A DNA stretch of 64,000 nucleotides from Hyphomicrobiales bacterium (GTDB lineage: Bacteria; Pseudomonadota; Alphaproteobacteria; Rhizobiales; Beijerinckiaceae). The stretch lies in assembly GCA_027483505.1 (NCBI GenBank), contig JAIXUP010000062.1, positions 64,724-128,723 on the forward strand, read 5' to 3'. Made by a program: the position numbers and the translations under genes. Positions 11,397-32,018 of this stretch are shown one piece after another. Under the pieces are notes generated by a model. It worked only from the letters and a program-made list of their open reading frames with translations, made no database searches and was not told the DNA's origin. Position 1 is the first letter of the stretch, and the number at the start of each line of letters is the position of its first letter.

Positions 11397-12131
11397 TCAG
11401 TGTGCCGCGAGGGCAGCGCGGGCGCGCACGAGATCGTCGGGCGTGTCAACCCCGCGCGGGACATGGGCGATGATGCGCGCGTCAATGCGCATGCCATCCT
11501 CGAGCGCGCGCAGTTGCTCGAGCTTCTCGCGCAATTCCAGCGGCGAAGGCGGCAGCGCCACGAAACGCTCCAGCGCGCGGCGGCGATAGGCGTAGACGCC
11601 GACATGGTGGTACAGCGGCCCGTCGCCGTAAGGGGCCGTGGCGCGGGTGAAGTAGAGCGCGCGCATGCGGCCCGGGCTGATCATGCTGCCCACCAGCTTG
11701 ACCACGCTTGGAGCCGCCCTTTCGTCCTCTTCGACAATTTCCGCTGCCAGCGTCGCGATCTGAACGGCTGGATCGGCCAGCGGCTCAATCGAGATCGCAA
11801 CGGCGCCCGCATCGATCGTCGGGAAGTCGCCCTGGAGATTGACCACGATGTCGTGCCGTCCTTCGGGGTCGAGCACGTCCGCCGCCTCCTTGATCCGGTC
11901 CGAGCCCGACTGGTGGTCGGAACGGGTCATCACCGCTCGGCCACCAACAGCCTCGACAGCGGCGACGATCTCGGCCGAATCGGTGGCCACCGCCACCGGT
12001 CCGATGCCGGCCGCGATCGCCTTGCGCCAGACTCGCACGATCATCGGCTCGCCGTTGATATCGGCCAGCGGCTTGTTGGGCAGGCGTGTGGCAGCCATGC
12101 GGGCAGGGATCAGGACAAGCGGGTCGGACAT
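11397..12131 (-). CDS. kdsB: 3-deoxy-manno-octulosonate cytidylyltransferase
   Basis: [38 protein letters not shown]. Confidence 0.95.
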
Positions 12132-20077: not shown

Positions 20078-20152
20078 GCTGCGGTAGCTCAGTGGTAGAG
20101 CACACCATTGGTAATGGTGAGGTCGAGAGTTCAATCCTCTCTCGCAGCACCA
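20078..20152 (+). tRNA. tRNA-Thr(GGT)
   Basis: 75 nt cloverleaf: acceptor GCTGCGG/TCGCAGC, anticodon arm CACCA-TTGGTAA-TGGTG, GTTCAAT T-loop, encoded 3' CCA. Confidence 0.97.
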
Positions 20153-20306
20153 GCCACTCGCATGGGAACCGATGATGTTCCGGTTCTGGCAGAGAAGGCT
20201 GGCGACTTCCGGGGTTTAGGCAAAGGCCCCGCACGCAGAGAGAGCCAAAAGCAGAGAGTTTCGGACGCTTCCTGGGACCGCATTGAGGGCAATTCTCGGT
20301 ACTCAA
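20147..20306 (+). repeat. Left copy of ~160 bp diverged direct repeat
   Basis: Hand alignment to 28218-28376: 99/130 identical without gaps over the first 130 nt, then one 1 nt indel. Confidence 0.85.
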
Positions 20307-20569
20307 GTGGGTGTTTTCCTACTGTGCCCGGTGCGCGAACCAGAGAGCGGTTCGAGTTTCCGCAGAGATTGGTTTGAATGTCAGGGATGCTGACGTTGCC
20401 CCCGCTTCCGGCTTCCGGTTTTTCAGCATTCGCCGCCTCACAGGCTAGAAGGCGACCACCAATCGGCAACCGGCATTTTCGATCATTCTGGGAAATGTTC
20501 CGCTTGGAATGCGGTCCGTTACAATGGACGCGCACTCGTCCAACTTCCCGAGAACGAACGTTGCGACAC

Positions 20570-20950
20570 GGGAGAACTTCGTGTGGTCGGCAAGCAAGAC
20601 AGGGTGTCTCGAATTGAGCAGCATGGCTCCGGGAACCCTGTTCCTGTTGCCGTGGCTGATCATGTTCACCAAGCTCGTGCTTGTGGGAAGCCATCTCGAG
20701 CTGATCCTCACGCACGCCGCGATCACCTTGCCGGTCGTGATCTGGGTGCTGCTGCCATACATGGATGCTTTGCCGCGCGAACTGGTCGAATCTGCGCAGA
20801 TTGATGGTGCCCGGCAGGACCAGATCCTTCGGCTGGTCGCGATTCCCATCGTTTCAGGCGGGATGGTCGTTGCGGCGATCCTGAGCTTCGTCTTTTCTTG
20901 GAACTATTTTATCTTCGCCCTCGTCCTGTCAGACATCAGGACCAAGACGG
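20570..20950 (+). pseudogene. Fragment of carbohydrate ABC permease (MalG-like)
   Basis: MAPGTLFLLPW...LPRELVESAQIDGA (EAA loop)...SFVFSWNYFIFALVL; lacks N-terminus and ends abruptly after RTKT; boundaries approximate. Confidence 0.75.
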
Positions 20951-21332
20951 CGATTGTTGCCAGCACGGCAACAGGCCTTCTGTCCTGTGACGCAGCATCG
21001 ATAACTGTCTGCGCCATGTGGATGATCGGCACCTTTGCCGAAGCAGCAAGCTGATCATACCAGGCATGCGCCGTGTTGCAGGCAATGGCGATCGCCTCGA
21101 CACCCGCCTGCTCCAGCGTCCTTATTCCGGTGAGCATGGCCGGCAATGGTTCATCGGTTCCGGCAATAGCTGCGCCAACCCGGTCAGGAATCTGCGGAAC
21201 AGAATAGACAATCAGGGGAACGTGATCCTGTTCGTGTTCAGCAGGTGTCGTCTCCATCACCTTCTGCATGACGTCAACTGTGGCCAGAGGGCCCATGCCG
21301 CCCATTATCCCGATCAGTCAGCGCCTCGCCAT
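20950..21332 (-). pseudogene. Aspartate/glutamate racemase family pseudogene
   Basis: MARR*LIGIMGGMGPLAT (in-frame TGA at 21318-21320), IACNTAHAW; truncated after PVAVLAT, so the second catalytic half is missing. Confidence 0.8.
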
Positions 21333-21382
21333 GCAGTTAGTCCTTTGCAGATCGAATGCGGCATCGCCGGCCGGGACCAATG

Positions 21383-22702
21383 TCAGCGGCTGACACCCCG
21401 AGAAACCTGCTCCGCAAAATCCAGCAACCTGGCGTCTGCACCATGCCAGGACATCAGCTGTAAACCTGTGGGCAAGCCCGTCGAGGTGATGCCGTTCGGA
21501 ATGCTGATCCCGCAAAGATCAAGGTAATTCCCTGCTCTGGTGTAACGGGACATCGGGATCGTCGATTCATCGACCGTGTTGACGGGGACTGCTGGCAGAG
21601 GCGTGCTCGGCAGGGCGATGATGTCGAAGCGGGCCCAACCTGACCTGAATTCAGCAATCGCTGCCACACGATCCTGCACGAGCGCCGCGTAACGTGCATC
21701 ATCGATGTCGCGTCCGGCCAGAATGCGTTGGCGGACATGAGGATCCAGCGGCGTTGCAGGGTCCTCGGCGAGTGCTTTATGCTGGCGATAGGCATCATGG
21801 GCAACGATGCTGCCGTTGAGCGCCTGATACGCGGTCATCTCCCTGGGGAAAGAGAATATTTCGACCGTATGGCCAGCCGAGCGCATGGCCTCAATCGATC
21901 GTTCGAAGTTCGCAAGCACCTCAGGGTCGCAAGGCGCAAGCTGATCGGCGGCGGGCACACCGACATGCAGCGAGTTTCCGCTTACCATTTCCGGCACAGG
22001 CAGTCCAGCCATCACGCAGAACAGCAGCCGTGCATCCGCGACGGTTTGTGTGATCGGGCCGAGCGTATCGAAAGCCGGGCCAAGGGGGGCAATACCTTCC
22101 AGCGGGATTCGGTCAAAGCTCGGCTTGAACCCTACAATCCCGCACAGCGACGCCGGAATGCGGATTGATCCCCCGGTATCGGAGCCGATGGCTGCGGGCA
22201 CCAATCCGGCAGCAACAGCGACCGCAGACCCGCTGCTTGATCCGCCGGGCACGCGATGCACGTCACGATCGACCGGGTTCCATGGCGTGCCCATCGCATG
22301 GTTGGTTCCCCAGCCGCCGATGGCGAACTCCACCATCTGTGTCATGCCGATGATGACAGCCCCCGCGTCAATGAGGCGCTGGATGGCCCGGGCGGTCATT
22401 GCGCCTCGCTGCGGCGGATAGCACTTCGACCCAAACCCCGGTGATCGATCCCCGATTTGCGCGAGGTCTTTGACAGCGATCGGCACGCCGTGCAGGGGGC
22501 CAACAGGACCACGCTGCGCTGCAACCCGATCCAGCTCTTCGGCCCGCCGTATCGCGCCTTCAGCAAAAACCTCGACGAAAGCGTGCAGTTTGCCGTTCTC
22601 TGCGTTGATCGCTTCGAGACAACGCCGCACGACCGAAAGGGCTGATAGCTGGCCACTCGCAATCTGGCGCTCGATGTCCTTCATGGAAAAGTCCAAGCCC
22701 AC
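21383..22702 (-). CDS. Amidase signature family protein
   Basis: GVPIAVKD, PGGSSSGSA, GSDTGGSIRIPASLCG (Lys-cisSer-Ser triad motifs); GTG 22702 or ATG 22684 start. Confidence 0.92.
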   Translation of the reverse strand: MGLDFSMKDIERQIASGQLSALSVVRRCLEAINAENGKLHAFVEVFAEGAIRRAEELDRVAAQRGPVGPLHGVPIAVKDLAQIGDRSPGFGSKCYPPQRGAMTARAIQRLIDAGAVIIGMTQMVEFAIGGWGTNHAMGTPWNPVDRDVHRVPGGSSSGSAVAVAAGLVPAAIGSDTGGSIRIPASLCGIVGFKPSFDRIPLEGIAPLGPAFDTLGPITQTVADARLLFCVMAGLPVPEMVSGNSLHVGVPAADQLAPCDPEVLANFERSIEAMRSAGHTVEIFSFPREMTAYQALNGSIVAHDAYRQHKALAEDPATPLDPHVRQRILAGRDIDDARYAALVQDRVAAIAEFRSGWARFDIIALPSTPLPAVPVNTVDESTIPMSRYTRAGNYLDLCGISIPNGITSTGLPTGLQLMSWHGADARLLDFAEQVSRGVSR

Positions 22703-22940
22703 CGCGCTGTCCCTTCTGATTGATGCTGCCCGCAAGCGAAATGTGAGCCTACTCTAGGCAGTCGGCGCCTATGGCTCAATCCCGGGCTTCGAGAGCACGT
22801 GGCATCAAATCTGCCGATGCACGCATGAGGAGAGGCTCACAAGAACAGTCGTGTCGTTCCGGCTCTGGGACTGGCGAAAATCACCGAACTGAAACGATGC
22901 GGTCAGCCTGGCAGACCTTTACGTCGGTAGCGTCGATCCA

Positions 22941-24428
22941 TCAACCCGCCAGGCCAGAGCCGATCGGACCCGAAGACGTGTTGAACAGCATCATGCCGTC
23001 CGGCGCCGTGCGGCGATCGGGCCAGCCGGGGCTTCGGCCATGGCAGAAGTCGACCCAGGCCGACTGCACAGCCTCTGTGACAGTGCGCATCTCGGCCGGG
23101 TCCGCGCCAGCCATCATCGGGGCGACGGGCCAACAGTCAATATTGCCGAAGACGAAGGGGATTTCGATGCAGTGACACGCTCCATAGCGGGCGTCCGGCG
23201 CTGGCTTCCAATCGAAACGGTAGACCCAAGCCTCGCCGCCGAGCGCTGCGCGCCTGTCTGCAACTGTTTTCGCCGCCGAGCCGAAGACGTGCTCGGTCAG
23301 TTCCTCGCTGAGTGCGAGCCAAGGCGCCAGGCCGCCGGCGATCCGCGCCTCGATCCGCGCAAGGCTGGCATCCGGCAGGCCGATCGCCGGCGGCAGCACC
23401 TTCAGTTCGGCGAGCCCGGTGGCAGCCATCATGCGCGCGTCCTGCGCATGCCAGGCGTGCATCTCGTCGAGCGTCCAGCCTAGCATCAGAGGAATGTGGG
23501 GCGAGGCGCCTTCAGCGGCAGCGGTCGACGGCGTCCGTGGGAGTTCGGGCAGGCCGGATATGAGCTGCCAGGGCAGCAGCCGGCCTGGACGCTGGGCGAA
23601 GGCCATGACGACCGCACCCTGCGCAGCAAGGATGGACTTTACATCCAGGGCCCGCAACGCCTGGACGTCGCCATCGCGCAGGCCGGCCTTCTCGAAAAAG
23701 TGGCTGGCGATCTCGCGGGCCTGGGACAGGTCAAGGCTCGCGCCCGGCGCGCTCTGGACGATCCCGCGCTGGAGGAGACCACTCGCCAACGGGCTCGAGA
23801 GCAGGCCGAAGAGCGCCCCGCCACCGGCTGACTGGCCCGCCACCGTCACCCGGTCAGGATCTCCACCGAACGCTTCGATATTGTCCCTTATCCAGCGCAG
23901 CGCGGCGATCTGGTCCAGCAGGCCGCGATTGGCCGGCGCGCCTCCCTCCGCCTCGATGCCGGGCAGGTAGAGATATCCCAGCGCGCCGAGCCGGTAGGTG
24001 ACAGTGACCACCACCATGTCCCCGCGCTCGGCCAGATGGCTGCCGGCGTAGAAGGGCTGGCTTCCGCCCCCGCTCATGTAGGCCCCGCCATGCAGCCAGA
24101 CCATCACGGGCCTGCGCGCGCCATCGGCGGCGGGCGTCCAGATGTCGAGATGGAGGCTATCCTCCGACTGCTCGAAGGAAGCGATCCCCATCACCGCGTC
24201 GAGCCGCGAGGCGTTCTGCGGGGGGCTCGGGCCAATCCGCGCGCAGTCGCGCACGCCCTCCCAGGCCGAAACAGGCTGGGGCGGCGCGAAGCGTAAGGGC
24301 CCGACAGGTGGCGCGGCGTAGGGCACCGCGTGGAAGGCGGTCACGGCACCCCTGCTCACCCCGCGCGCAAGCCCGGCTCGGGTCCGCACCACTGGCATCT
24401 CCATCGTTGGCTTGTCTGTCCCCGGCAT
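22941..24428 (-). CDS. Type-B carboxylesterase (para-nitrobenzyl esterase-like)
   Basis: VPYAAPPVGPLRFAPP, SEDSLHLDIWTP, WLHGGAY, GQSAGG nucleophile, GACHCIEI. Confidence 0.92.
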   Translation of the reverse strand: MPGTDKPTMEMPVVRTRAGLARGVSRGAVTAFHAVPYAAPPVGPLRFAPPQPVSAWEGVRDCARIGPSPPQNASRLDAVMGIASFEQSEDSLHLDIWTPAADGARRPVMVWLHGGAYMSGGGSQPFYAGSHLAERGDMVVVTVTYRLGALGYLYLPGIEAEGGAPANRGLLDQIAALRWIRDNIEAFGGDPDRVTVAGQSAGGGALFGLLSSPLASGLLQRGIVQSAPGASLDLSQAREIASHFFEKAGLRDGDVQALRALDVKSILAAQGAVVMAFAQRPGRLLPWQLISGLPELPRTPSTAAAEGASPHIPLMLGWTLDEMHAWHAQDARMMAATGLAELKVLPPAIGLPDASLARIEARIAGGLAPWLALSEELTEHVFGSAAKTVADRRAALGGEAWVYRFDWKPAPDARYGACHCIEIPFVFGNIDCWPVAPMMAGADPAEMRTVTEAVQSAWVDFCHGRSPGWPDRRTAPDGMMLFNTSSGPIGSGLAG

Positions 24429-24616
24429 CGTCAGTCCCTTGCGCCTCGATCACGACAGGACAGGGCAGACTCCGGGCAGTGTCAATCGCCAAATACAGCT
24501 TGACCGCGCGCGGCAAGCAGGCTGTTTTAGCTTCAGTGTCCGGTCGCTGGCCCGGGCGGGCATTTTTTCGTGCAAGGAGCGTCCATGCCCCGCGCCGCCG
24601 AAAGGCTGCTGAGCCG

Positions 24617-25396
24617 ATGACGGACGCTATCCGCTTCGAGGGCGTTTCGCTGAAATTCGGAAGCGAGACGATCTACGACCGCCTCGACTTTCATGTTGGC
24701 CAAGGGGAATTCGTCTGCTTGCTCGGACCTTCGGGCTGCGGAAAGTCGACGGCGCTCAGAATCATTGGCGACCTGCTGCCTGCAGATGGCGGGACAGCGC
24801 TGGTCAACGGTCGCCCGCCGGGGGAATGCTGGAGCGACATTGCGTTCGTCTTCCAGTCGCCGCGGCTCGCACCTTGGCGAACTGCGATAGACAATGTCCT
24901 GCTCGGTGCAGAATTGCGCTTCGGCGCGCGCGAGGCTGAGGCGCGACGCCCCAAGGCAGAGGCGCTGCTCGCGCTGGTCGGGCTTGCGGATTCGGGCAGC
25001 AAGTATCCACCGATGCTCTCGGGGGGCGAACGCCAGCGGGTCGCGATCGCCAGAGCGTTGTGCGTGGATCCGTCGATCATCCTGATGGACGAGCCTTTCT
25101 CCGCGCTCGACCCCAACAGCCGCCGCCGGCTGCGCGCCGAAATCGTCAGCATCTGGCAGGAGACACGGCGCACCGTCCTGTTCGTCACCCACGACATCGA
25201 AGAGGCCCTGACCCTGGCCGACCGCATCGTGCTGCTGTCCAACAAGCCGACGCGGGTGCTGGAAACCGTCGTGATCACCGCCCCCCGCCCCCGTGACGTC
25301 GCGCGCGACCCCGACATTGCGCGGCTGCGCGACACGTTGAGCGCGCTTTTCCGCACGCTGGAGCCGAATTCCGAGACCGAAGAGGAGATTGCATGA
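24617..25396 (+). CDS. NitT/TauT-family ABC transporter ATP-binding protein
   Basis: GPSGCGKST, LSGGERQR, ILMDEPFSALD, FVTHDIEEA. Confidence 0.9.
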   Translation: MTDAIRFEGVSLKFGSETIYDRLDFHVGQGEFVCLLGPSGCGKSTALRIIGDLLPADGGTALVNGRPPGECWSDIAFVFQSPRLAPWRTAIDNVLLGAELRFGAREAEARRPKAEALLALVGLADSGSKYPPMLSGGERQRVAIARALCVDPSIILMDEPFSALDPNSRRRLRAEIVSIWQETRRTVLFVTHDIEEALTLADRIVLLSNKPTRVLETVVITAPRPRDVARDPDIARLRDTLSALFRTLEPNSETEEEIA

Positions 25397-26400
25397 TGGA
25401 ACGAAGGACTTTCCTGCGGGTGGCAGCGGCCGCACCGGCCGCGCTATCCGCCACGCTGTCAGCCCCTTGGGTCGCCCGCGCTCAGGGCCGGCAGAAGATC
25501 ACCTACGCCTATCTCCTGGACCCGGTCTACGACGCCGCGCTCTGGGCGATCCGCAAGGGCATCGTCAAATCCGACATCGTCGACATCGAGGCCACGGGCG
25601 CGAACATCCCCACACTGATTCAGGCGACCGCGACCAAGCAGTTCGACGTCGTGATGACGGCCGTGATCGGCGTGCCGGCTGCAGCCGCGCGCGGGCTCGA
25701 GTTGAGGATCCTGTCCGCGGCGCTCTACGCCTCGGCGGTGGGCGAAGGTGGCGGCGTCTGGGTCAGGCGCGATAGCCCTCTGCGCGATCCGGCGCAGCTC
25801 AAGGGCCGTATGCTCGCCTCCTACGGCCTGCGCTCGACGGGCTATCTCTTCATCCGCGAGGCGCTGGCGCAGCGCTTCGGACTCAACATGGCGCTGGAGG
25901 GCGGAGACGTGCGCCAGGTCGAGGTGGTCGCGCCAAATCTGCCGGCCGCTCTCGCGACCAGCCAGACGGATGCGGCTACGCTGATCCACTCCCAAGCCTT
26001 CCGCGCCCGGCAGGCGGGCGATTTCGTCAATATCTGCGAAACGGGCGTGATCCTGAACGAGATCCATGGCCGGCTGGTGTCGGCGGTCAATGTCGCCTAT
26101 CCCGAGAGGCTCTCGGCGCGTCCAGACCATTACCGTGAGTTCAACCGCATGATCCGCGAGTCGGTGCGCTACGCGCTGGCCAACCGCGACGAGGTTTTCC
26201 CTGACGTGGCCCGGCAGGCCAACATCGCGCGAGAATTCTTCGATTGGTGGTTCGACCGCACGACGGAGGTTCCTGGCATGTTCGGAGAGGAGCATGCGCG
26301 GGCCGTCACAAAGGCCTGGGAGATCGGTCAGCGCTTCGCCATGATCCAGCGTGTTCCCGACGTAGGCCAGTTGACCTGGGAGCACACGCTCCGGTCCTGA
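25393..26400 (+). CDS. NitT/TauT/SsuA-type ABC substrate-binding protein, Tat signal
   Basis: RRTFLRVAAAA twin-arginine signal; located between ATPase and two permeases. Confidence 0.8.
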   Translation: MMERRTFLRVAAAAPAALSATLSAPWVARAQGRQKITYAYLLDPVYDAALWAIRKGIVKSDIVDIEATGANIPTLIQATATKQFDVVMTAVIGVPAAAARGLELRILSAALYASAVGEGGGVWVRRDSPLRDPAQLKGRMLASYGLRSTGYLFIREALAQRFGLNMALEGGDVRQVEVVAPNLPAALATSQTDAATLIHSQAFRARQAGDFVNICETGVILNEIHGRLVSAVNVAYPERLSARPDHYREFNRMIRESVRYALANRDEVFPDVARQANIAREFFDWWFDRTTEVPGMFGEEHARAVTKAWEIGQRFAMIQRVPDVGQLTWEHTLRS

Positions 26401-26402
26401 CG

Positions 26403-27179
26403 ATGGCAGGCGAGGCGGGAACAGGCGTCAAGGCTGGCGTCGCGGCGGGGTGCGCAGCGATGATAGCGATCGGCTGGGTTTACGCCTCGGCGCGCGCACC
26501 GTCCTATCTTCTGCCACCGCCTGCTGTCGTCTGGGAGGCGGCAGTCAACTTCTTCACCAGCTCACGCCAGCTCGGGCACCTCGGCGCGACGCTGTTCCAC
26601 ATCGGCTCCTCGATTTCTGTCGCTTTTGGCGTCGGGGCGGCGCTCGCGCTGCTGGCCCATTACGCCGCCTGGTCCGCGCCAGCCATCCGTGACCGGCTGA
26701 CGCCGTTCCTGAACGCCTTCTCGGGTATCGCCTGGACGCTGCTCAGCGTGATCTGGTTCGGCGTCTCCTCGACGACCGTGATCTTCACCATCACTGTCGT
26801 ACTCCTGCCTTTCGCCCTGGTGAACCTGCGCGAGGGGCTCGACGCGCTCGACCGCGAGACCGATGAGATGGGCCGCAGCTTTACGCGCAGCCGGCTGCGC
26901 GTCTTCCGGCTCCTCATTCTGCCGGCACTCATGCCCTTTGCGGCCGCGACGCTGAGGATCATGTTCGGCGTCGCCTGGAAGGTAGCCTTGACGGCCGAGC
27001 TTTTCGGGGGCGACAGGGGGCTGGGTTTCCTCGTGAACCTGGCGCGCCAGGAATTCGCAACCGAGACGATCTTTGTTGTGATCATCTTCATCATCGTCTC
27101 GGTCTACTTGGCCGACCGGCTGGTCTTCATGCGCTTCGAGCGCGCGGCCGCCCGCCGCTACGGTGGGAGAACGGCATGA
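26403..27179 (+). CDS. NitT/TauT-family ABC permease
   Basis: LLPPPAVV, LREGLDALDRE..EMGRSF, WKVALTAELFG. Confidence 0.85.
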   Translation: MAGEAGTGVKAGVAAGCAAMIAIGWVYASARAPSYLLPPPAVVWEAAVNFFTSSRQLGHLGATLFHIGSSISVAFGVGAALALLAHYAAWSAPAIRDRLTPFLNAFSGIAWTLLSVIWFGVSSTTVIFTITVVLLPFALVNLREGLDALDRETDEMGRSFTRSRLRVFRLLILPALMPFAAATLRIMFGVAWKVALTAELFGGDRGLGFLVNLARQEFATETIFVVIIFIIVSVYLADRLVFMRFERAAARRYGGRTA

Positions 27180-27931
27180 GCCTCGCCGGACGCAGCCCCG
27201 GACGCTGGCTCGCCGACGCGCTTGTGCTGGCGGCGCTGCTTGCCTGGTATGTCGGGGCGCGGCATCTTCCCGAATTCGTCCTGCCGGGGCCCGTCGCAGT
27301 CTTCCAGAGGCTGGTCGTGCTCTTCGTTGACCCCGATTTTCTCCAGCATACGCTGGCCTCGACGCTCCGGGTCGTGGCCTCGGTGTTGGCGGCGCTGGTT
27401 ATTGGCGGCGGACTTGCCTTGCTGCACCGGGCGGTCCCTGCGCTCGACTGGGTCATCCGCGGCGGCATACAGCCGGTGCTGAGCTCGTTTCCTTCTATCG
27501 GCTGGGCCATCCTGGCCGCGATCTGGTTCCCGCCGGGCCATCTCTCGATCATCTTCGTGCAAGTGGCGATCCTTATACCCTTCTGCCTGATCAACATGGC
27601 CGAAGGGCTTCGGCAGATGGACCGCGAGATGCTCGAAATGGCGCGGAGCTACACCCGCCTGGGGCGGCGCGTTGTGCTGCGCGTAGCCTTGCCTCTGATC
27701 ATGCCCTACGTCATCGGTGCGCTGCGCATCTGCTACGGCATCGGCTGGAAGATCTCGCTGGTGGCCGAGTTGTTGGGCTCCTCCTCCGGTCTCGGCTTCC
27801 TCATGCTGCGAGCGCAGGGGGCCGCCGACATGACCACTGTCGTGGCAGCGAGCTTCGCCATCGTTCTTCTGTTCGTAGCCGGCGAAAAGCTGTTGATCGC
27901 GCCTTTGGCCCGCCGCTATGCGCAGCGCTGA
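27176..27931 (+). CDS. NitT/TauT-family ABC permease
   Basis: VLPGPVAV, EGLRQMDREMLEMARSY, WKISLVAELLG. Confidence 0.85.
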   Translation: MSLAGRSPGRWLADALVLAALLAWYVGARHLPEFVLPGPVAVFQRLVVLFVDPDFLQHTLASTLRVVASVLAALVIGGGLALLHRAVPALDWVIRGGIQPVLSSFPSIGWAILAAIWFPPGHLSIIFVQVAILIPFCLINMAEGLRQMDREMLEMARSYTRLGRRVVLRVALPLIMPYVIGALRICYGIGWKISLVAELLGSSSGLGFLMLRAQGAADMTTVVAASFAIVLLFVAGEKLLIAPLARRYAQR

Positions 27932-27986
27932 GGCGCAGACGCAGGTCGCCATGGTCAGCGGGCAGCGCATCTGGCATGCAATGCCC

Positions 27987-28180
27987 AATCCCTGTTTGTA
28001 CAGGCTAAATCCCCGCAGGGCGGATCACGTTCCCAGGTCAGCTGAATGAGATTTCCTGTTCCTCGACCCAGGGAAATCGACCTCGAGGATAGTGATCTTG
28101 CGCCGCCAATCAGACGAAAATTCTGAGTCAAGGCATCGAAATTCAAGGCAATTCCCTGTTCATTCCCTGGAAACAGGGAA
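27987..28180. repeat. Cluster of direct and inverted (T)TCCCTG(TT)/CAGGGAA motifs
   Basis: AATCCCTGTT 27987, ACAGG 28000, ATTTCCTGTT 28051, CAGGGAAAT 28069, AATTCCCTGTT 28150, ATTCCCTG 28162, AACAGGGAA 28172. Confidence 0.6.
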
Positions 28181-28217
28181 AGCAAGCCGCGAGATTGGTT
28201 CTCACGGACTGCCTCCC

Positions 28218-28376
28218 GCACCCGCCATTCTCACGCGAAGCGATGATTGTCCGGTTCCGGCTGAGAGGGCTGGCAATTTCCGGGGTTCTGGCAAGAGCCC
28301 TCCTTGCAGACAGAGCGGAACACAGAGAGCATCGGGCGCTTGCGGGGCCGCATTCGGGGCCTTTCGCGGTATCCAA
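28218..28376 (+). repeat. Right copy of ~160 bp diverged direct repeat
   Basis: Aligns to 20147-20306 at about 76% identity by hand count. Confidence 0.85.
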
Positions 28377-28640
28377 CATGCAGTCTCCGAGCGCGGCAGG
28401 CGCGCGAGGCCTGGTCGCCGTTCTGAGGACGGTCGTGGGTTCGAAGCGGCATGCATCGACGATCCGACTGGCTTTGTCGATGCACCCAGCCCGAGAACGC
28501 GGTCCGGCCGGGCGGCTGCAGCAGTGCACGAAAGAGCGGGTGCGGGGTGGGAGAGTTCATCATGCCATGGGCGATGATGAGTGTTCATCTGCCCGTCTTG
28601 AGGGTGCTTCCGCAGCAAGGCGGGATGACCGGATGTCCGG

Positions 28641-28814
28641 TCAGTTCAAACCCGGCAAGATGCCATTGAACATGCCATTGACCCTGGTGCCGATCACGCC
28701 GACAGAGGCGACGGCGCAAATCGAGATGATCGAGGCTATGAGCGCGTATTCGATCGAGGTGATGCCCCGTTCGTCGCGCACAAACCGTCTGATCAGGGAC
28801 CGCTCACCATTCAT
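28641..28814 (-). CDS. Flp/Fap (type IVc/Tad) pilin
   Basis: 57 aa; RFVRDERG|ITSIEYALIA prepilin cleavage and Flp motif followed by a hydrophobic helix. Confidence 0.88.
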   Translation of the reverse strand: MNGERSLIRRFVRDERGITSIEYALIASIISICAVASVGVIGTRVNGMFNGILPGLN

Positions 28815-28966
28815 GACGGGAAGGATGCCAGCAACGGCTTCGCGAAAAGTTAACAGCGCCCGGCTTTTTCGCCGAGCTGGCAGCATGCTTGCTGCAGCGT
28901 GAACGGCTTTTGCGCAATGCGCTTGATCCCCGCATGATGCCGGGATGAGCCTGTCTCGTGCCCGGC

Positions 28967-30340
28967 CTACAGTGCGTACTCTGTGAACGCCGGATCGATG
29001 GACCCCTGCCACGGACCGTGGAATGACGCGATCAGATCGTCCGCAACCGTCCGCCCGCTGGCGACGATCACATCAAGCGGATCAAGGAACCGGGTTTCGT
29101 CGCGGCCGGACGGATCGGTGAAACCACGCCGCGCGAGGCCGGACCGAGCGAGCCTGAGCACATCAGATGCGATTTCCCGAACCGTGCGCCCCTGGATGGC
29201 CGCCGCAAGCCCCTGGGCCGGCACAGCGTCGCGAAGGGCCTGACGCTCTGCGGCAGTCCAGCCCTTGACGAGTTGCCAGGCCTGGTCCAGCGCGGCTTGA
29301 TCATACAGAAGCCCGGTCCAGAAGGCCGGCAGGGCGACCAGATTGGCGGCAGGCCCCGCATCGGCGCCGCGCATTTCGAGATAGCGCTTCAGCCGCACCT
29401 CGGGAAACAGGGTCCCCATGTGGTTGGCCCAATCCGCAATCGTGGCCTGCTGGCCCGGCGCTCCGGCCAGCCTGCCGGCCATCAGGTCGCGGAACGAACC
29501 GCCGGACACATCATGATAGGTCGCGCCGCGCTTGACGAAATACATCGGCACGTCGAGCGCCCAGTCGACATAACGCTCATAGCCCATGCCATCCTCGAAG
29601 GCGAAGGCGAGCATGCCGGAGCGGTTATTGTCGGTGTCGCGCCAGATTTCAGACCGCATCGACCTTTGCCCGTTGAGCCGGCCCTCGGTAAACGGCGAAG
29701 CGGCGAACAGCGCCGTCGCGACAGGCTGGAGGGCGAGCGAAACGCGCAGCTTCTGCACCATATCCGCTTCGTTGGAGAAATCGAGATTCACCTGCACCGT
29801 GCAGGTGCGGAACATCATGTCCCGTCCGCGCGTGCCCACCTTGGGCATGTAGTTGCGCATGATCTGATAGCGCGACTTGGGCATGATCGGCGTCTGCTCA
29901 AGCGACCATTTCGGACTGTGGCCAAGGCTGAGGAAGCCGATTCCAAGTGGCTCGGCCAGTTGTCTGAGCTGCGCCAGATGCGTGTTCAGTTCATTGCTGG
30001 TCTGGTGCAGCGTTTCGACCGGCGCGCCCGACAGTTCGAACTGTCCGCCAGGCTCGAGCGAGATGGCGCCGCCGCCCGTGACGTCGGCCAGCCCGATGGG
30101 ATGGTCGCCTTCCATGATCGGCTCCCAGCCGAGAAGCCAGGACATCCCGTCGAGCAGACGCCGGATGCCGCCGCGCGGGCCGTCATAGGGCACCGGAGCG
30201 AGATCGGCGCGGTAGAAGGGGAACTTCTCGTGTTCTGTCCCAAGGCGGTAGCGCGCCCTCGGCTTCTCCCCTGCCGCGATCCACGCGACCAGATCGTCGC
30301 GGGAGCCGAGCGGAGTCGGATCGGATTGGTCACGGGCCAT
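28967..30340 (-). CDS. gshA: Glutamate--cysteine ligase (alphaproteobacterial/plant type)
   Basis: LGTEHEKF, ISLEPGGQFELSG, MPKSRY, MMFRTCTVQVNLD, YLEMRGAD. Confidence 0.93.
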   Translation of the reverse strand: MARDQSDPTPLGSRDDLVAWIAAGEKPRARYRLGTEHEKFPFYRADLAPVPYDGPRGGIRRLLDGMSWLLGWEPIMEGDHPIGLADVTGGGAISLEPGGQFELSGAPVETLHQTSNELNTHLAQLRQLAEPLGIGFLSLGHSPKWSLEQTPIMPKSRYQIMRNYMPKVGTRGRDMMFRTCTVQVNLDFSNEADMVQKLRVSLALQPVATALFAASPFTEGRLNGQRSMRSEIWRDTDNNRSGMLAFAFEDGMGYERYVDWALDVPMYFVKRGATYHDVSGGSFRDLMAGRLAGAPGQQATIADWANHMGTLFPEVRLKRYLEMRGADAGPAANLVALPAFWTGLLYDQAALDQAWQLVKGWTAAERQALRDAVPAQGLAAAIQGRTVREIASDVLRLARSGLARRGFTDPSGRDETRFLDPLDVIVASGRTVADDLIASFHGPWQGSIDPAFTEYAL

Positions 30341-30687: not shown

Positions 30688-31872
30688 TCAGTGCAGCAGT
30701 TGCGGCGCCATGCCGGGAGCCCTGGCTGACTGCCGCTGGCCCGACCGGGTTTCGGAGGCGAGCCAGTCAACCACGACGCCGAGCGCCTGCTCGGAGTTGC
30801 GCAGGCGGTTGCGCGCCTCCTCGAACACCGCAAGCTGGGTGTCGGCGCTCGTGCCGCGGCTGAGAATGTCCCGCAGCGACAGCAGTTGCGGCAGACAGCC
30901 AAGCTCGCGGGCGTCGTCCTCGAGCAGCGCGATCGTGTCCTCGAGGACATCGGCAACATTGCGCATGCTGGCCGTCCGCTCGTCCACGAAGGCGCCGTGG
31001 ATGCCATAGCGCTGGGCGCGCCAGACATTCTCCGCCGCGATGGCGCGCGTGGCGGCGGACATCTCGGCATTGATCGCGCCATTGAAATCCAGACGCCGCA
31101 CCAGACAGCGGTACAGGGCCGCGATCGCGATGGTGTCACCAAGGCGGGTGCAGCTGTCGGCGATGCGCAGTTCAAGCGTCGGATGCTGGCGCGAGGGCCG
31201 GATCGCCCACCAGACGAAGCTGGAGTTCTCGATGGCGCGGGCCGACACCATGATGTCGAGATAGCGCCGGTAGTCGGCGGCGTTCTCGAACACTTCCGGC
31301 AGCCCGGTGCGCGGCAGTTCGCGATAGGCCGCCAGGCGGTAGCCCATCAGTCCAGTGCGATGGCCCTGCCAGAAGGGCGATGAGGTCGAGAGCGCCAGAA
31401 GCAGGGGCAGGAAAGGCAGAATCCGGCCCATGATGCTGATGCGCCGGTCTTCATCGGCGATTTCGACATGGACATGCAGGCCGCACACCTGGTTGCGCGA
31501 GCCCAGCATCTGCAGGTCGCGCATCATGCGGTCATAGCGCGCCGCTGCCGTGACGCGCTGGCGCAGCCAGGTCGCGCTCGGATGCGTGCCCGACGCCATC
31601 ACCAGAAGCCCGTGATCGCCTGCAATCGCGGAGATTCCCTGCCTGAGCCCGCCAAGCGCCGCTTCGGCGTCGCTGAAGTCCAGCAGCGGCGGCGTCGCCA
31701 CCTCAAGCTGGCACTGCAGCATCTCGCGCTGGACTTCGACCGGATAGGCCGCGCGAACCGCCGCAATAAATGAAGGATCGACACGGCCAACCGCAGCTTT
31801 TGTAACAGCATCTGACAGGAAATATTCTTCTTCGATGCCGAACTGATATGTATTTGATTTTGTCATGGACAT
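30688..31872 (-). CDS. Carboxylate-amine ligase, YbdK/GCS2 family
   Basis: FGIEEEYFL, EMLQCQLE, CGLHVHV, LALSTSSPFWQG, WWAIRPS, TLELRIAD. Confidence 0.88.
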   Translation of the reverse strand: MSMTKSNTYQFGIEEEYFLSDAVTKAAVGRVDPSFIAAVRAAYPVEVQREMLQCQLEVATPPLLDFSDAEAALGGLRQGISAIAGDHGLLVMASGTHPSATWLRQRVTAAARYDRMMRDLQMLGSRNQVCGLHVHVEIADEDRRISIMGRILPFLPLLLALSTSSPFWQGHRTGLMGYRLAAYRELPRTGLPEVFENAADYRRYLDIMVSARAIENSSFVWWAIRPSRQHPTLELRIADSCTRLGDTIAIAALYRCLVRRLDFNGAINAEMSAATRAIAAENVWRAQRYGIHGAFVDERTASMRNVADVLEDTIALLEDDARELGCLPQLLSLRDILSRGTSADTQLAVFEEARNRLRNSEQALGVVVDWLASETRSGQRQSARAPGMAPQLLH

Positions 31873-32018
31873 GAACCTTTCTGACAAGATTTTGTTTTGC
31901 AAAAACTTGCTTTGACTCCTGCCCAGACTAGCGGCGATCAAGGCTCAATTGCGACCCGATCGCAGATAATTTAACTGTTTGATCTTTCTCTGTTTTTGAG
32001 AGCGACGCAGAGCGCCGG

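Follow-up and report, generated by a model that had tools for sequence, protein, structure and literature searches.

Accretion of mobile islands with decayed, integrase-less members among them is a described process (PMC5704250; bioRxiv 10.1101/2020.12.28.424599). In the ICESt1 family of Streptococcus thermophilus, islands of the integrative and conjugative element (ICE) and integrative and mobilizable element (IME) types, cis-mobilizable elements (CIMEs) included, accumulate in tandem at the 3' end of the target gene (PMC5704250), and in the tycheposon islands of Prochlorococcus newcomers push older elements inward (bioRxiv 10.1101/2020.12.28.424599). The interval analyzed here belongs to an alphaproteobacterial clade of metagenome-assembled genomes (MAGs), in contrast to the Streptococcus host of the ICESt1 family. 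It lies within a 64,000-nt stretch of DNA (the window; C42:64724-128723 of the source assembly) of a 3.9-Mb genome, labeled G000, of a freshwater Bosea in the GTDB family Beijerinckiaceae, and extends from an intact threonine transfer RNA gene, tRNA-Thr(GGT), between two diverged copies, 8 kb apart, of a module of ~240 nt that we designate E (left copy E_L, right copy E_R, first 53 nt E1). Its anatomy, tRNA linkage, variable content, and lack of recombinases are matters of observation. We consider the chances slightly better than even that it arose by tandem accretion at a tRNA-Thr hotspot, with E as the end module that a family of integrative elements has on its tRNA-proximal side and E_R as the older copy. 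The defining features are:

20078-20152, plus strand: intact tRNA-Thr(GGT) gene (ARAGORN; Rfam RF00005, 70 bits), the sole tRNA of the window
20143-20152 and beyond, plus strand: left "core", the final bases GCACCAGCCA of tRNA-Thr(GGT)
20147-20390, plus strand: E_L, left copy of module E (nhmmer profile of 12 copies, E-value 2.7e-69)
28218-28454, plus strand: E_R, right copy of module E, displaced and decaying (nhmmer E-value 5.5e-55; 3 of 14 E1 pairs broken)

A long direct repeat of about 160 bp had been proposed here in a first-pass annotation of the sequence. The repeat is real, positions 20147-20276 and 28218-28347 being identical in 99 of 130 ungapped positions (76%), and gapped alignment of the left with the right copy gave 76.1% identity over 155 nt (E-value 1e-24 against the whole 3.9-Mb genome). 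Its length, however, had been underestimated, as the profile of all copies extends both to ~240 nt. With this 12-copy profile exactly three copies were found in G000, namely E_L, E_R, and a third one at C30:36920-36744, directly 3' of tRNA-Thr(TGT). The short second motif of the same annotation was confirmed as well, with GAGATTGGTT occurring exactly twice in the window (at 20365 and 28191; expected 0.03), and so was the lack of a recombinase between the copies: no tyrosine or serine recombinase domain was found on this contig stretch, neither by a Pfam scan of the larger open reading frames (ORFs) of the interval nor by genome-wide six-frame searches with PF00589 and PF00239. Between G000 and its nearest relative (G077; labels of the form G0xx and G1xx denote the related genomes compared, with G076 being the next nearest), E_R is less conserved than E_L (78% vs 85% identity; background 88-94%). 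Together with its broken stems, this lower conservation is as would be expected of a displaced relic.

Extension of the search to relatives tied E to one tRNA family and one lineage. A DNA search detected E in 7 of the 111 genomes of the genus, all of them small (2.6-4.0 Mb) MAG-type assemblies, and E is confined to a single small-genome Bosea MAG subclade; absences from this whole-genome search are soft because it overlooked the true right copy within G000 itself. An exact-pattern scan of one genome per species, covering 185,579 species, returned eight E matches and a metagenome scan two, every one of them directly 3' of tRNA-Thr, and the pattern was absent from the viral contigs scanned. The tRNA-Thr genes preceding E are either of the GGT type, with two different anticodon stems, or of the TGT type. 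These two have the 3' segment GAGTTCAATCCTCTC....GCACCAGCCA in common; tRNA-Thr(CGT), which has a different T arm, is without E. All copies found start at the CCA end of a tRNA-Thr gene except E_R and its G077 counterpart. The ~240-nt E is a lineage-specific, tRNA-Thr-linked module, newly defined here.

Comparison with the two nearest relatives showed that E marks the border of variable content. The first conserved right flank common to all three genomes is the following:

28641-29012, minus strand: ORF with a Flp/Fap pilin gene, flp (Pfam PF04964), the first flank on the right that is syntenic in G077 and G076

Downstream of flp follows a tandem of two paralogs from the GCS2 (glutamate-cysteine ligase 2) family (28967-30340 and 30688-31941, both on the minus strand); GCS2 is kept across the genus, and flp adjoins it in G000, G076, and G077 only. 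At 88-94% identity, G077 is syntenic with G000 up to 20372, where an insertion sequence (IS)-like contig end follows, and again from 28284, and its contig C37 carries the cargo of the interval in the same order at 93-95% identity. In place of window positions 28077-28283, which comprise the second half of a dispersed repeat (R2, see below), the right core, and the E1 part of E_R, G077 holds ~22 kb of transporter and porin genes. Its partial E_R is preceded by TCGCTGCACCAGCA, a 13/15 match to the tRNA 3' end, and its E_L by a perfect tandem duplicate of the last 30 nt of tRNA-Thr(GGT) (GAGTTCAATCCTCTCTCGCAGCACCAGCCA twice; L081:12453-12512, contig C108), possibly a scar left by recombination, possibly an artefact of assembly. 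G076 has the same tRNA and the same flp-GCS2 flank; the intervening 5.6 kb contain different genes, and E is absent. There, the carboxylesterase/ABC transporter module of the G000 interval is found ~3 kb downstream of tRNA-Gln(CTG), in an 8.4-kb interval (L117:5501-13964, contig C48) delimited by a 20-nt sequence in perfect direct repetition, CAGCCACCGCCTCTCCAAGC, which begins within the last 6 nt of the tRNA. Sister genomes therefore carry the same cargo at two different tRNAs, in both cases within an interval bounded by repeats. The tRNA-Gln interval also holds an IS630-type transposase fragment.

Conserved synteny with the same cargo, which the first-pass annotation had named as speaking against an island, holds for G077 in content and order but not for G076. 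Further afield, the DNA downstream of E is different in each case, with a GHKL ATPase in G009, a PIN toxin and an IS481-type fragment at L084, and a TRAP (tripartite ATP-independent periplasmic) transporter at L086; G102 and G076 differ as well, and the tRNA-Thr(TGT) locus is equally variable among relatives. The gene of G009 (L087:3-1139, contig C55, minus strand) is a low-GC GHKL/HATPase-like gene directly after E of more than 379 aa, cut by the contig end. Such genes are often found in defense islands. Recent horizontal transfer of the G000 cargo, considered in view of 93-95% identity against 88-90% in the flanks, was rejected after 20 kb more of core genome gave 92-94%.

The same comparisons bear on an explanation that dispenses with mobile elements altogether, which we regard as very unlikely: E would be an ancestral flank of tRNA-Thr of which further copies arose through segmental duplication or gene conversion, with the homology of the tRNA 3' ends as the seed, and ordinary rearrangements and deletions would have made the variable content. 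The cargo indeed looks native (GC 0.58-0.69), its inheritance has been vertical from the common ancestor of G000 and G077 onward, and the intergenic, dispersed R2 could mediate rearrangements. Set against this are the absence of E after the same tRNA in G076 and most of the genus, the repeat-bounded occurrence of the cargo module at tRNA-Gln in G076, and the role of tRNA-Thr as a proven insertion hotspot in the genus. Furthermore, identity of E to its counterpart at L084, between distant hosts, is ~80% and thus above that of the neighboring coding DNA (~70%).

A second alternative takes E itself as the mobile entity, a small, gene-less, non-autonomous "hitcher" inserted at tRNA-Thr 3' ends by a recombinase encoded elsewhere, so that the cargo between the copies would be unrelated material accumulated at a fragile site. 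Solo copies without island cargo at tRNA-Thr(TGT) in both G000 and G077 fit this proposal, as do the core-core-E arrangement of G077 and the 5 tyrosine and 3 serine recombinases that G000 encodes elsewhere. Tyrosine recombinases among these are located at C87:57320, C53:3307, C71:19704, and C58:69648, and serine recombinases at C66:1550 and C70:1024. It is also in line with the E sequences forming two types that sort by neither tRNA locus nor host, in a poorly resolved tree with weak support (67-81%). Nevertheless, no genome holds more than three copies, and copies from the same genome share only ~76% identity, which excludes a recent burst. All finds of E were linked to tRNA-Thr, none came from viral contigs, and E has no target duplications; its ends, by reading of the alignment, are not inverted repeats of each other. 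In comparison with miniature inverted-repeat transposable elements (MITEs) or other IS-derived miniature elements, E is present in three genomic copies, all at or derived from tRNA-Thr ends, and has no terminal inverted repeats. We therefore assign this explanation a low probability.

The insertion of DNA at this tRNA is a general theme in Bosea. In large-genome members of the genus, the 3' end of tRNA-Thr(GGT) is duplicated as a 28-37-nt copy ~3-32 kb away, at hotspot loci L092/L093 (G005), L094/L095 (G020), L096/L097 (G010), L098/L099 (G014), and L100 (G001); among these inserts, an integrase adjoins tRNA-Thr only in G014. Their cargo includes, among others, an autotransporter, HipA, and a flotillin/DUF4153 protein. 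Behind the tRNA, G005, G020, G021, and G015 have a segment that is collinear with E, has the same start (GCCAyTCTC..AACCGnnGATTTTCC), and ends alike at 170-235 nt (ATTTTCCGAG...AGAGACGGGTTnG, the latter twice). This segment forms the tRNA-proximal end of a 32-kb insert in G005 and likewise of the insert in G020, and ~30 nt past the distal repeat of G005 match the sequence directly after the tRNA in G002, G008, and G013. A pattern scan of 401 genomes of the family for the E-like end found only G005 and G015 again.

Next to its position, the internal organization of E deserves attention, with two features of the left copy at its center:

20150-20202, plus strand: E1, nested inverted repeat including the tRNA CCA end (RNAalifold; pair counts)
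20190-20374, plus strand: five CAGAGA motifs in E_L, starting at 20190, 20236, 20252, 20341, and 20363 (motif count)

E1 consists of three stems, CCAGCC (20150-55) with GGCTGG (20197-202), CTC (20157-59) with GAG (20192-94), and AACCG (20167-71) with CGGTT (20181-85). Their 14 pairs are invariant in 11 tRNA-adjacent copies from three different tRNA-Thr genes, while spacers and loop vary; 98% of the cells are paired, and the sole stem substitutions in these copies are G-U compatible on the plus strand. The CAGAGA motif occurs five times in 238 nt of E_L, compared with 0.07 per kb per strand genome-wide, corresponding to a ~300-fold enrichment. The fourth and fifth belong to a longer unit, CAGAGAnnGGTTyGA (motif M), which is repeated in tandem at a spacing of 22 nt and conserved across copies. 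Three independent homology breakpoints (in G102, in the tRNA-Thr(TGT) copy of G076, and in E_R of G077) fall at alignment columns 59-66, just past E1; they may reflect use of the inverted, core-like GGCTGG or, equally, palindrome-mediated deletion. This architecture suggests that E could act as a recombination arm on the DNA level, with CAGAGA and CAGAGAnnGGTTCG as candidate protein-binding repeats.

It also invites a reading on the RNA level, in which E or its first ~57 nt (E1) would be a functional 3' trailer of the tRNA-Thr transcript. As an RNA element pairing with the CCA end, it would govern 3' processing or termination or yield a small RNA, comparable to 3'ETS-leuZ of E. coli, which Lalaouna et al. 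reportedly described in 2015 as a tRNA 3' external transcribed spacer RNA. In that case, E_R would be the remnant of an earlier copy of tRNA-Thr together with its trailer. The invariance of the E1 pairs next to varying spacers and loop, together with the strand-compatible substitutions, agrees with this, and so does the better conservation of tRNA-adjacent copies relative to the orphan E_R. Promoter and terminator scans found no consensus in E_L and no terminator between tRNA and E, and read-through transcription is therefore likely. In contrast, the covariation score of E1 equaled that of shuffled alignments (0.053 vs a shuffled mean of 0.056). Since the pairs are invariant, they neither prove nor refute a structure. 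RNAalifold gave no consistent fold of E past alignment column 57, the minimum free energy (MFE) z-score of -0.7 indicated no excess stability, and Rfam returned only tRNA at the gathering threshold and only chance-level matches besides tRNA at E<=10. The trailer reading moreover leaves the CAGAGA repeats and the coincidence with borders of variable DNA unexplained, and the identical or nearly identical tRNA-Thr(GGT) of most Bosea is without E, which shows that the tRNA does not need it. We thus hold a trailer function to be improbable. The structured or non-autonomous unit that the first-pass annotation had offered as its alternative retains the invariant E1 stems and the solo copies in its favor, but finds no backing in covariation or fold stability.

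At the right border, E_R abuts a second repeat:

28040-28227, plus strand: R2, member of another, dispersed repeat family that has TTCCCTG..CAGGGAA hairpins (blastn; alignment of 4 genomic copies)
28218-28227, plus strand: degenerate right "core" GCACCCGCCA, overlap of the R2 end and the E_R start

R2 (~190 nt) is intergenic and present in four copies in G000, in the window, at C37:3327-3500, at C82:~11560-11835, and, inverted, at C58:~71100-71300. The window copy ends in the hairpin CCGCGAGATTGGTTCTCACGG (28187-28207) followed by CGCACC, and the conserved R2 end ..GGTTC..GGACTGC....CGCACC (..CCAGAACGGTTCGCGCTGGACTGCGTGGCGCACCA) overlaps the start of E_R. Consequently, the tRNA-end-like GCACCCGCCA is the joint between R2 and E. 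The description of the right copy as starting in a tRNA-end-like sequence was accurate insofar as GCACCCGCCA is present there, compared with GCACCAGCCA at the tRNA end; the same decamer overlaps the conserved end of a dispersed repeat. A terminator-like hairpin on the minus strand inside R2 was the only site obtained from the promoter and terminator scans. At C82, a distance of 30 nt separates the end of R2 from an ABC ATPase gene that starts beyond it. R2 may be a regulatory unit or one resembling MITEs or repetitive extragenic palindromic (REP) sequences.

One R2 copy lies near an integrase gene on contig C58, where G000 has a classical 9.4-kb tRNA-Ser(GGA) island (C58:61455-70932). This island combines a perfect repeat of 14 nt, CGCCCTGTCCGCCA, with an AT-rich left end and with a tyrosine integrase of 450 aa adjoining the right attachment site, attR; the island end is covered by L103. 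R2 was accordingly considered as the right attachment (att) arm of the element. This was rejected, as the C58 copy lies outside attR of the tRNA-Ser island, the C37 and C82 copies are located between ordinary genes, and the R2 end copies none of the 44 tRNAs.

The DNA between the two copies of E is composed of debris and of intact metabolic modules:

20391-21305, strand not assigned: decayed left cargo (Pfam; blastn)
20621-20963, plus strand: ABC-permease fragment of 343 nt within ORF 20509-21054 (Pfam; blastn)
20904-21305, minus strand: truncated Asp/Glu racemase, 118 of 211 profile positions (Pfam)
21383-22735, minus strand: amidase gene (Pfam PF01425, 7e-89), cargo module common to G077 and G112
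22941-24428, minus strand: carboxylesterase gene (Pfam PF00135, 6e-86)
24308-27931, plus strand: four-gene NitT/TauT-type ABC transporter (Pfam)
24308-25396, plus strand: ABC ATPase, start uncertain (Pfam)
25393-26400, plus strand: NMT1/THI5-like binding protein (Pfam)
26244-27179 and 27176-27931, plus strand: two ABC permeases (Pfam)

The left ~1 kb of the interval is pseudogene debris of metabolic genes. Intact loci that match its permease fragment at 94-96% identity exist in G077 (C128) and G076 (C60); G000 is otherwise without an intact locus, which is evidence of reductive loss in this genome. By blastn, 20951-22728 is found again in G112 and 22939-27940, at another place, in G076, and the module boundary at 22939/22940 is a homology breakpoint in both G077 and G076. 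Conjugation or mobilization genes, or fragments of them, were not seen among the ORFs scanned in the interval. The interval is an old mosaic of gene fragments and imported modules and not a discrete recent island.

Taken together, tandem accretion is favored because E is tied to tRNA-Thr, lies at the border of variable content, and decays faster in its displaced copy, and because the cargo module recurs at tRNA-Gln in G076. The hotspot inserts of other Bosea, the CAGAGA enrichment, the tRNA-end duplicate of G077, and the breakpoints after E1 lend it further support. Elements would accordingly have inserted repeatedly and site-specifically behind tRNA-Thr(GGT), whose 3' end is a hotspot across the whole of Bosea, and the interval would be their fossil, with E serving as the arm on the left attachment site (attL) side of an element family that targets the 3' segment common to the GGT and TGT genes. 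The older E, now E_R, would once have stood directly against the tRNA; a later insertion would have brought E_L and cargo, so that the old copy came to lie 8 kb further in, with a degenerate core copy in front of it. The recombinase would have been lost and the cargo since reshuffled and partly degraded, and the G000/G077 lineage would have inherited the whole arrangement. This order of events, as well as any remaining mobilization in trans, is what we infer from the arrangement. The first-pass proposal of tandem tRNA-targeting elements that lost their recombinases is preferred on the same grounds, although mobility enters it by deduction and its island is not a discrete recent one.

Several observations count against accretion. 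Upstream of the long E repeat, the left and right cores GCACCAGCCA and GCACCCGCCA share only 9 of 10 nt, and the right core runs into the end of R2, a dispersed repeat found between ordinary genes at other sites. Precise excision cannot produce solo E copies such as those at tRNA-Thr(TGT), for which additional deletions are required. GC is ordinary inside the interval (0.58-0.69) and in the flanks (0.60-0.70), and the cargo identity of 93-95% lies at the top of the core range of 88-94%, giving no signal of recent transfer. The content at the tRNA differs between relatives, with 5.6 kb of other cargo in G076 and 22 kb more in G077; a true empty site was not found, flp-GCS2 adjoining tRNA-Thr in G000, G076, and G077 only. 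Homology of the E-like segments in large-genome Bosea is marginal (nhmmer E-value of 9e-4 in G015 and two collinear matches at 0.1 in G005; local-alignment z of at most 4.6). Searches for an integrase-bearing element with E at its end found none; PF00589 and PF00239 domains were absent inside the E-like inserts of G005 and G020 and near those of G015 and G021, and G000 has no homologue of the tRNA-Thr-adjacent integrase of G014. A free circular (attP) form was not found in viral or metagenome contigs. In addition, the genomes of the E-bearing subclade are all fragmented MAGs.

The locus illustrates the shuffling of small modules for catabolism and transport (amidase, carboxylesterase, NitT/TauT-type ABC transporter) among tRNA-linked hotspots in a streamlined freshwater lineage of Bosea once the recombinases are gone. 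In practical terms, the E sequence family marks tRNA-Thr insertion borders and is usable to delimit islands in these MAGs. A bolder proposal, for which we see only a slim chance, is that E with its 53-nt CCA-embracing palindrome and its CAGAGA/CAGAGAnnGGTTCG repeats is a gene-less "landing pad" recognized in trans by an unlinked recombinase or host factor and specifying DNA capture at tRNA-Thr, or else that E1 is a new cis-acting RNA element controlling tRNA-Thr 3' maturation. On the landing-pad reading, the tRNA-Thr loci of the streamlined Bosea clade would be programmable gene-exchange sites without resident integrases. Should E prove active in trans, be it as an arm or as a landing pad, it would offer a simple model for gene-less, cis-mobilizable cargo. 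If it does not, the locus is a routine island fossil.

With respect to described systems, the interval resembles CIMEs in lacking integration and transfer genes, in its att-like repeats beside a tRNA 3' end, and in the placement of a newer insertion beside an older, decayed one. It differs from them in that its repeats are diverged arms of ~240 nt whose common core is only 10 nt long and degenerate, with no parent ICE/IME or integrase known. Repeated integration at a tRNA with older material pushed inward, degenerate remnants, partial tRNA repeats, and nutrient-uptake cargo are shared with tycheposon arrays. The tyrosine recombinase and replication modules that define tycheposons are absent from this interval, however, and their repeats are partial tRNAs rather than a long segment downstream of a tRNA. 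Classical tRNA islands, which carry an integrase of the P4 type or another tyrosine integrase, such as the tRNA-Ser(GGA) island on C58 and the tRNA-Thr inserts of G014, G005, G010, and G020, agree with it in their position at a tRNA 3' end and in their polymorphism between relatives, whereas the perfect 14-nt repeat, the AT-rich end, and the integrase next to attR of the C58 island have no equivalent in the window interval. Like 3'ETS-leuZ, E is a conserved non-coding segment immediately 3' of a tRNA and probably co-transcribed with it; unlike that RNA, E is restricted to a narrow clade, tied to island borders, and predicted to have conserved pairing in its invariant stems only. Within this spectrum, the locus is an ordinary decayed, recombinase-less island remnant at a tRNA hotspot, distinguished by an unusually long end-piece.

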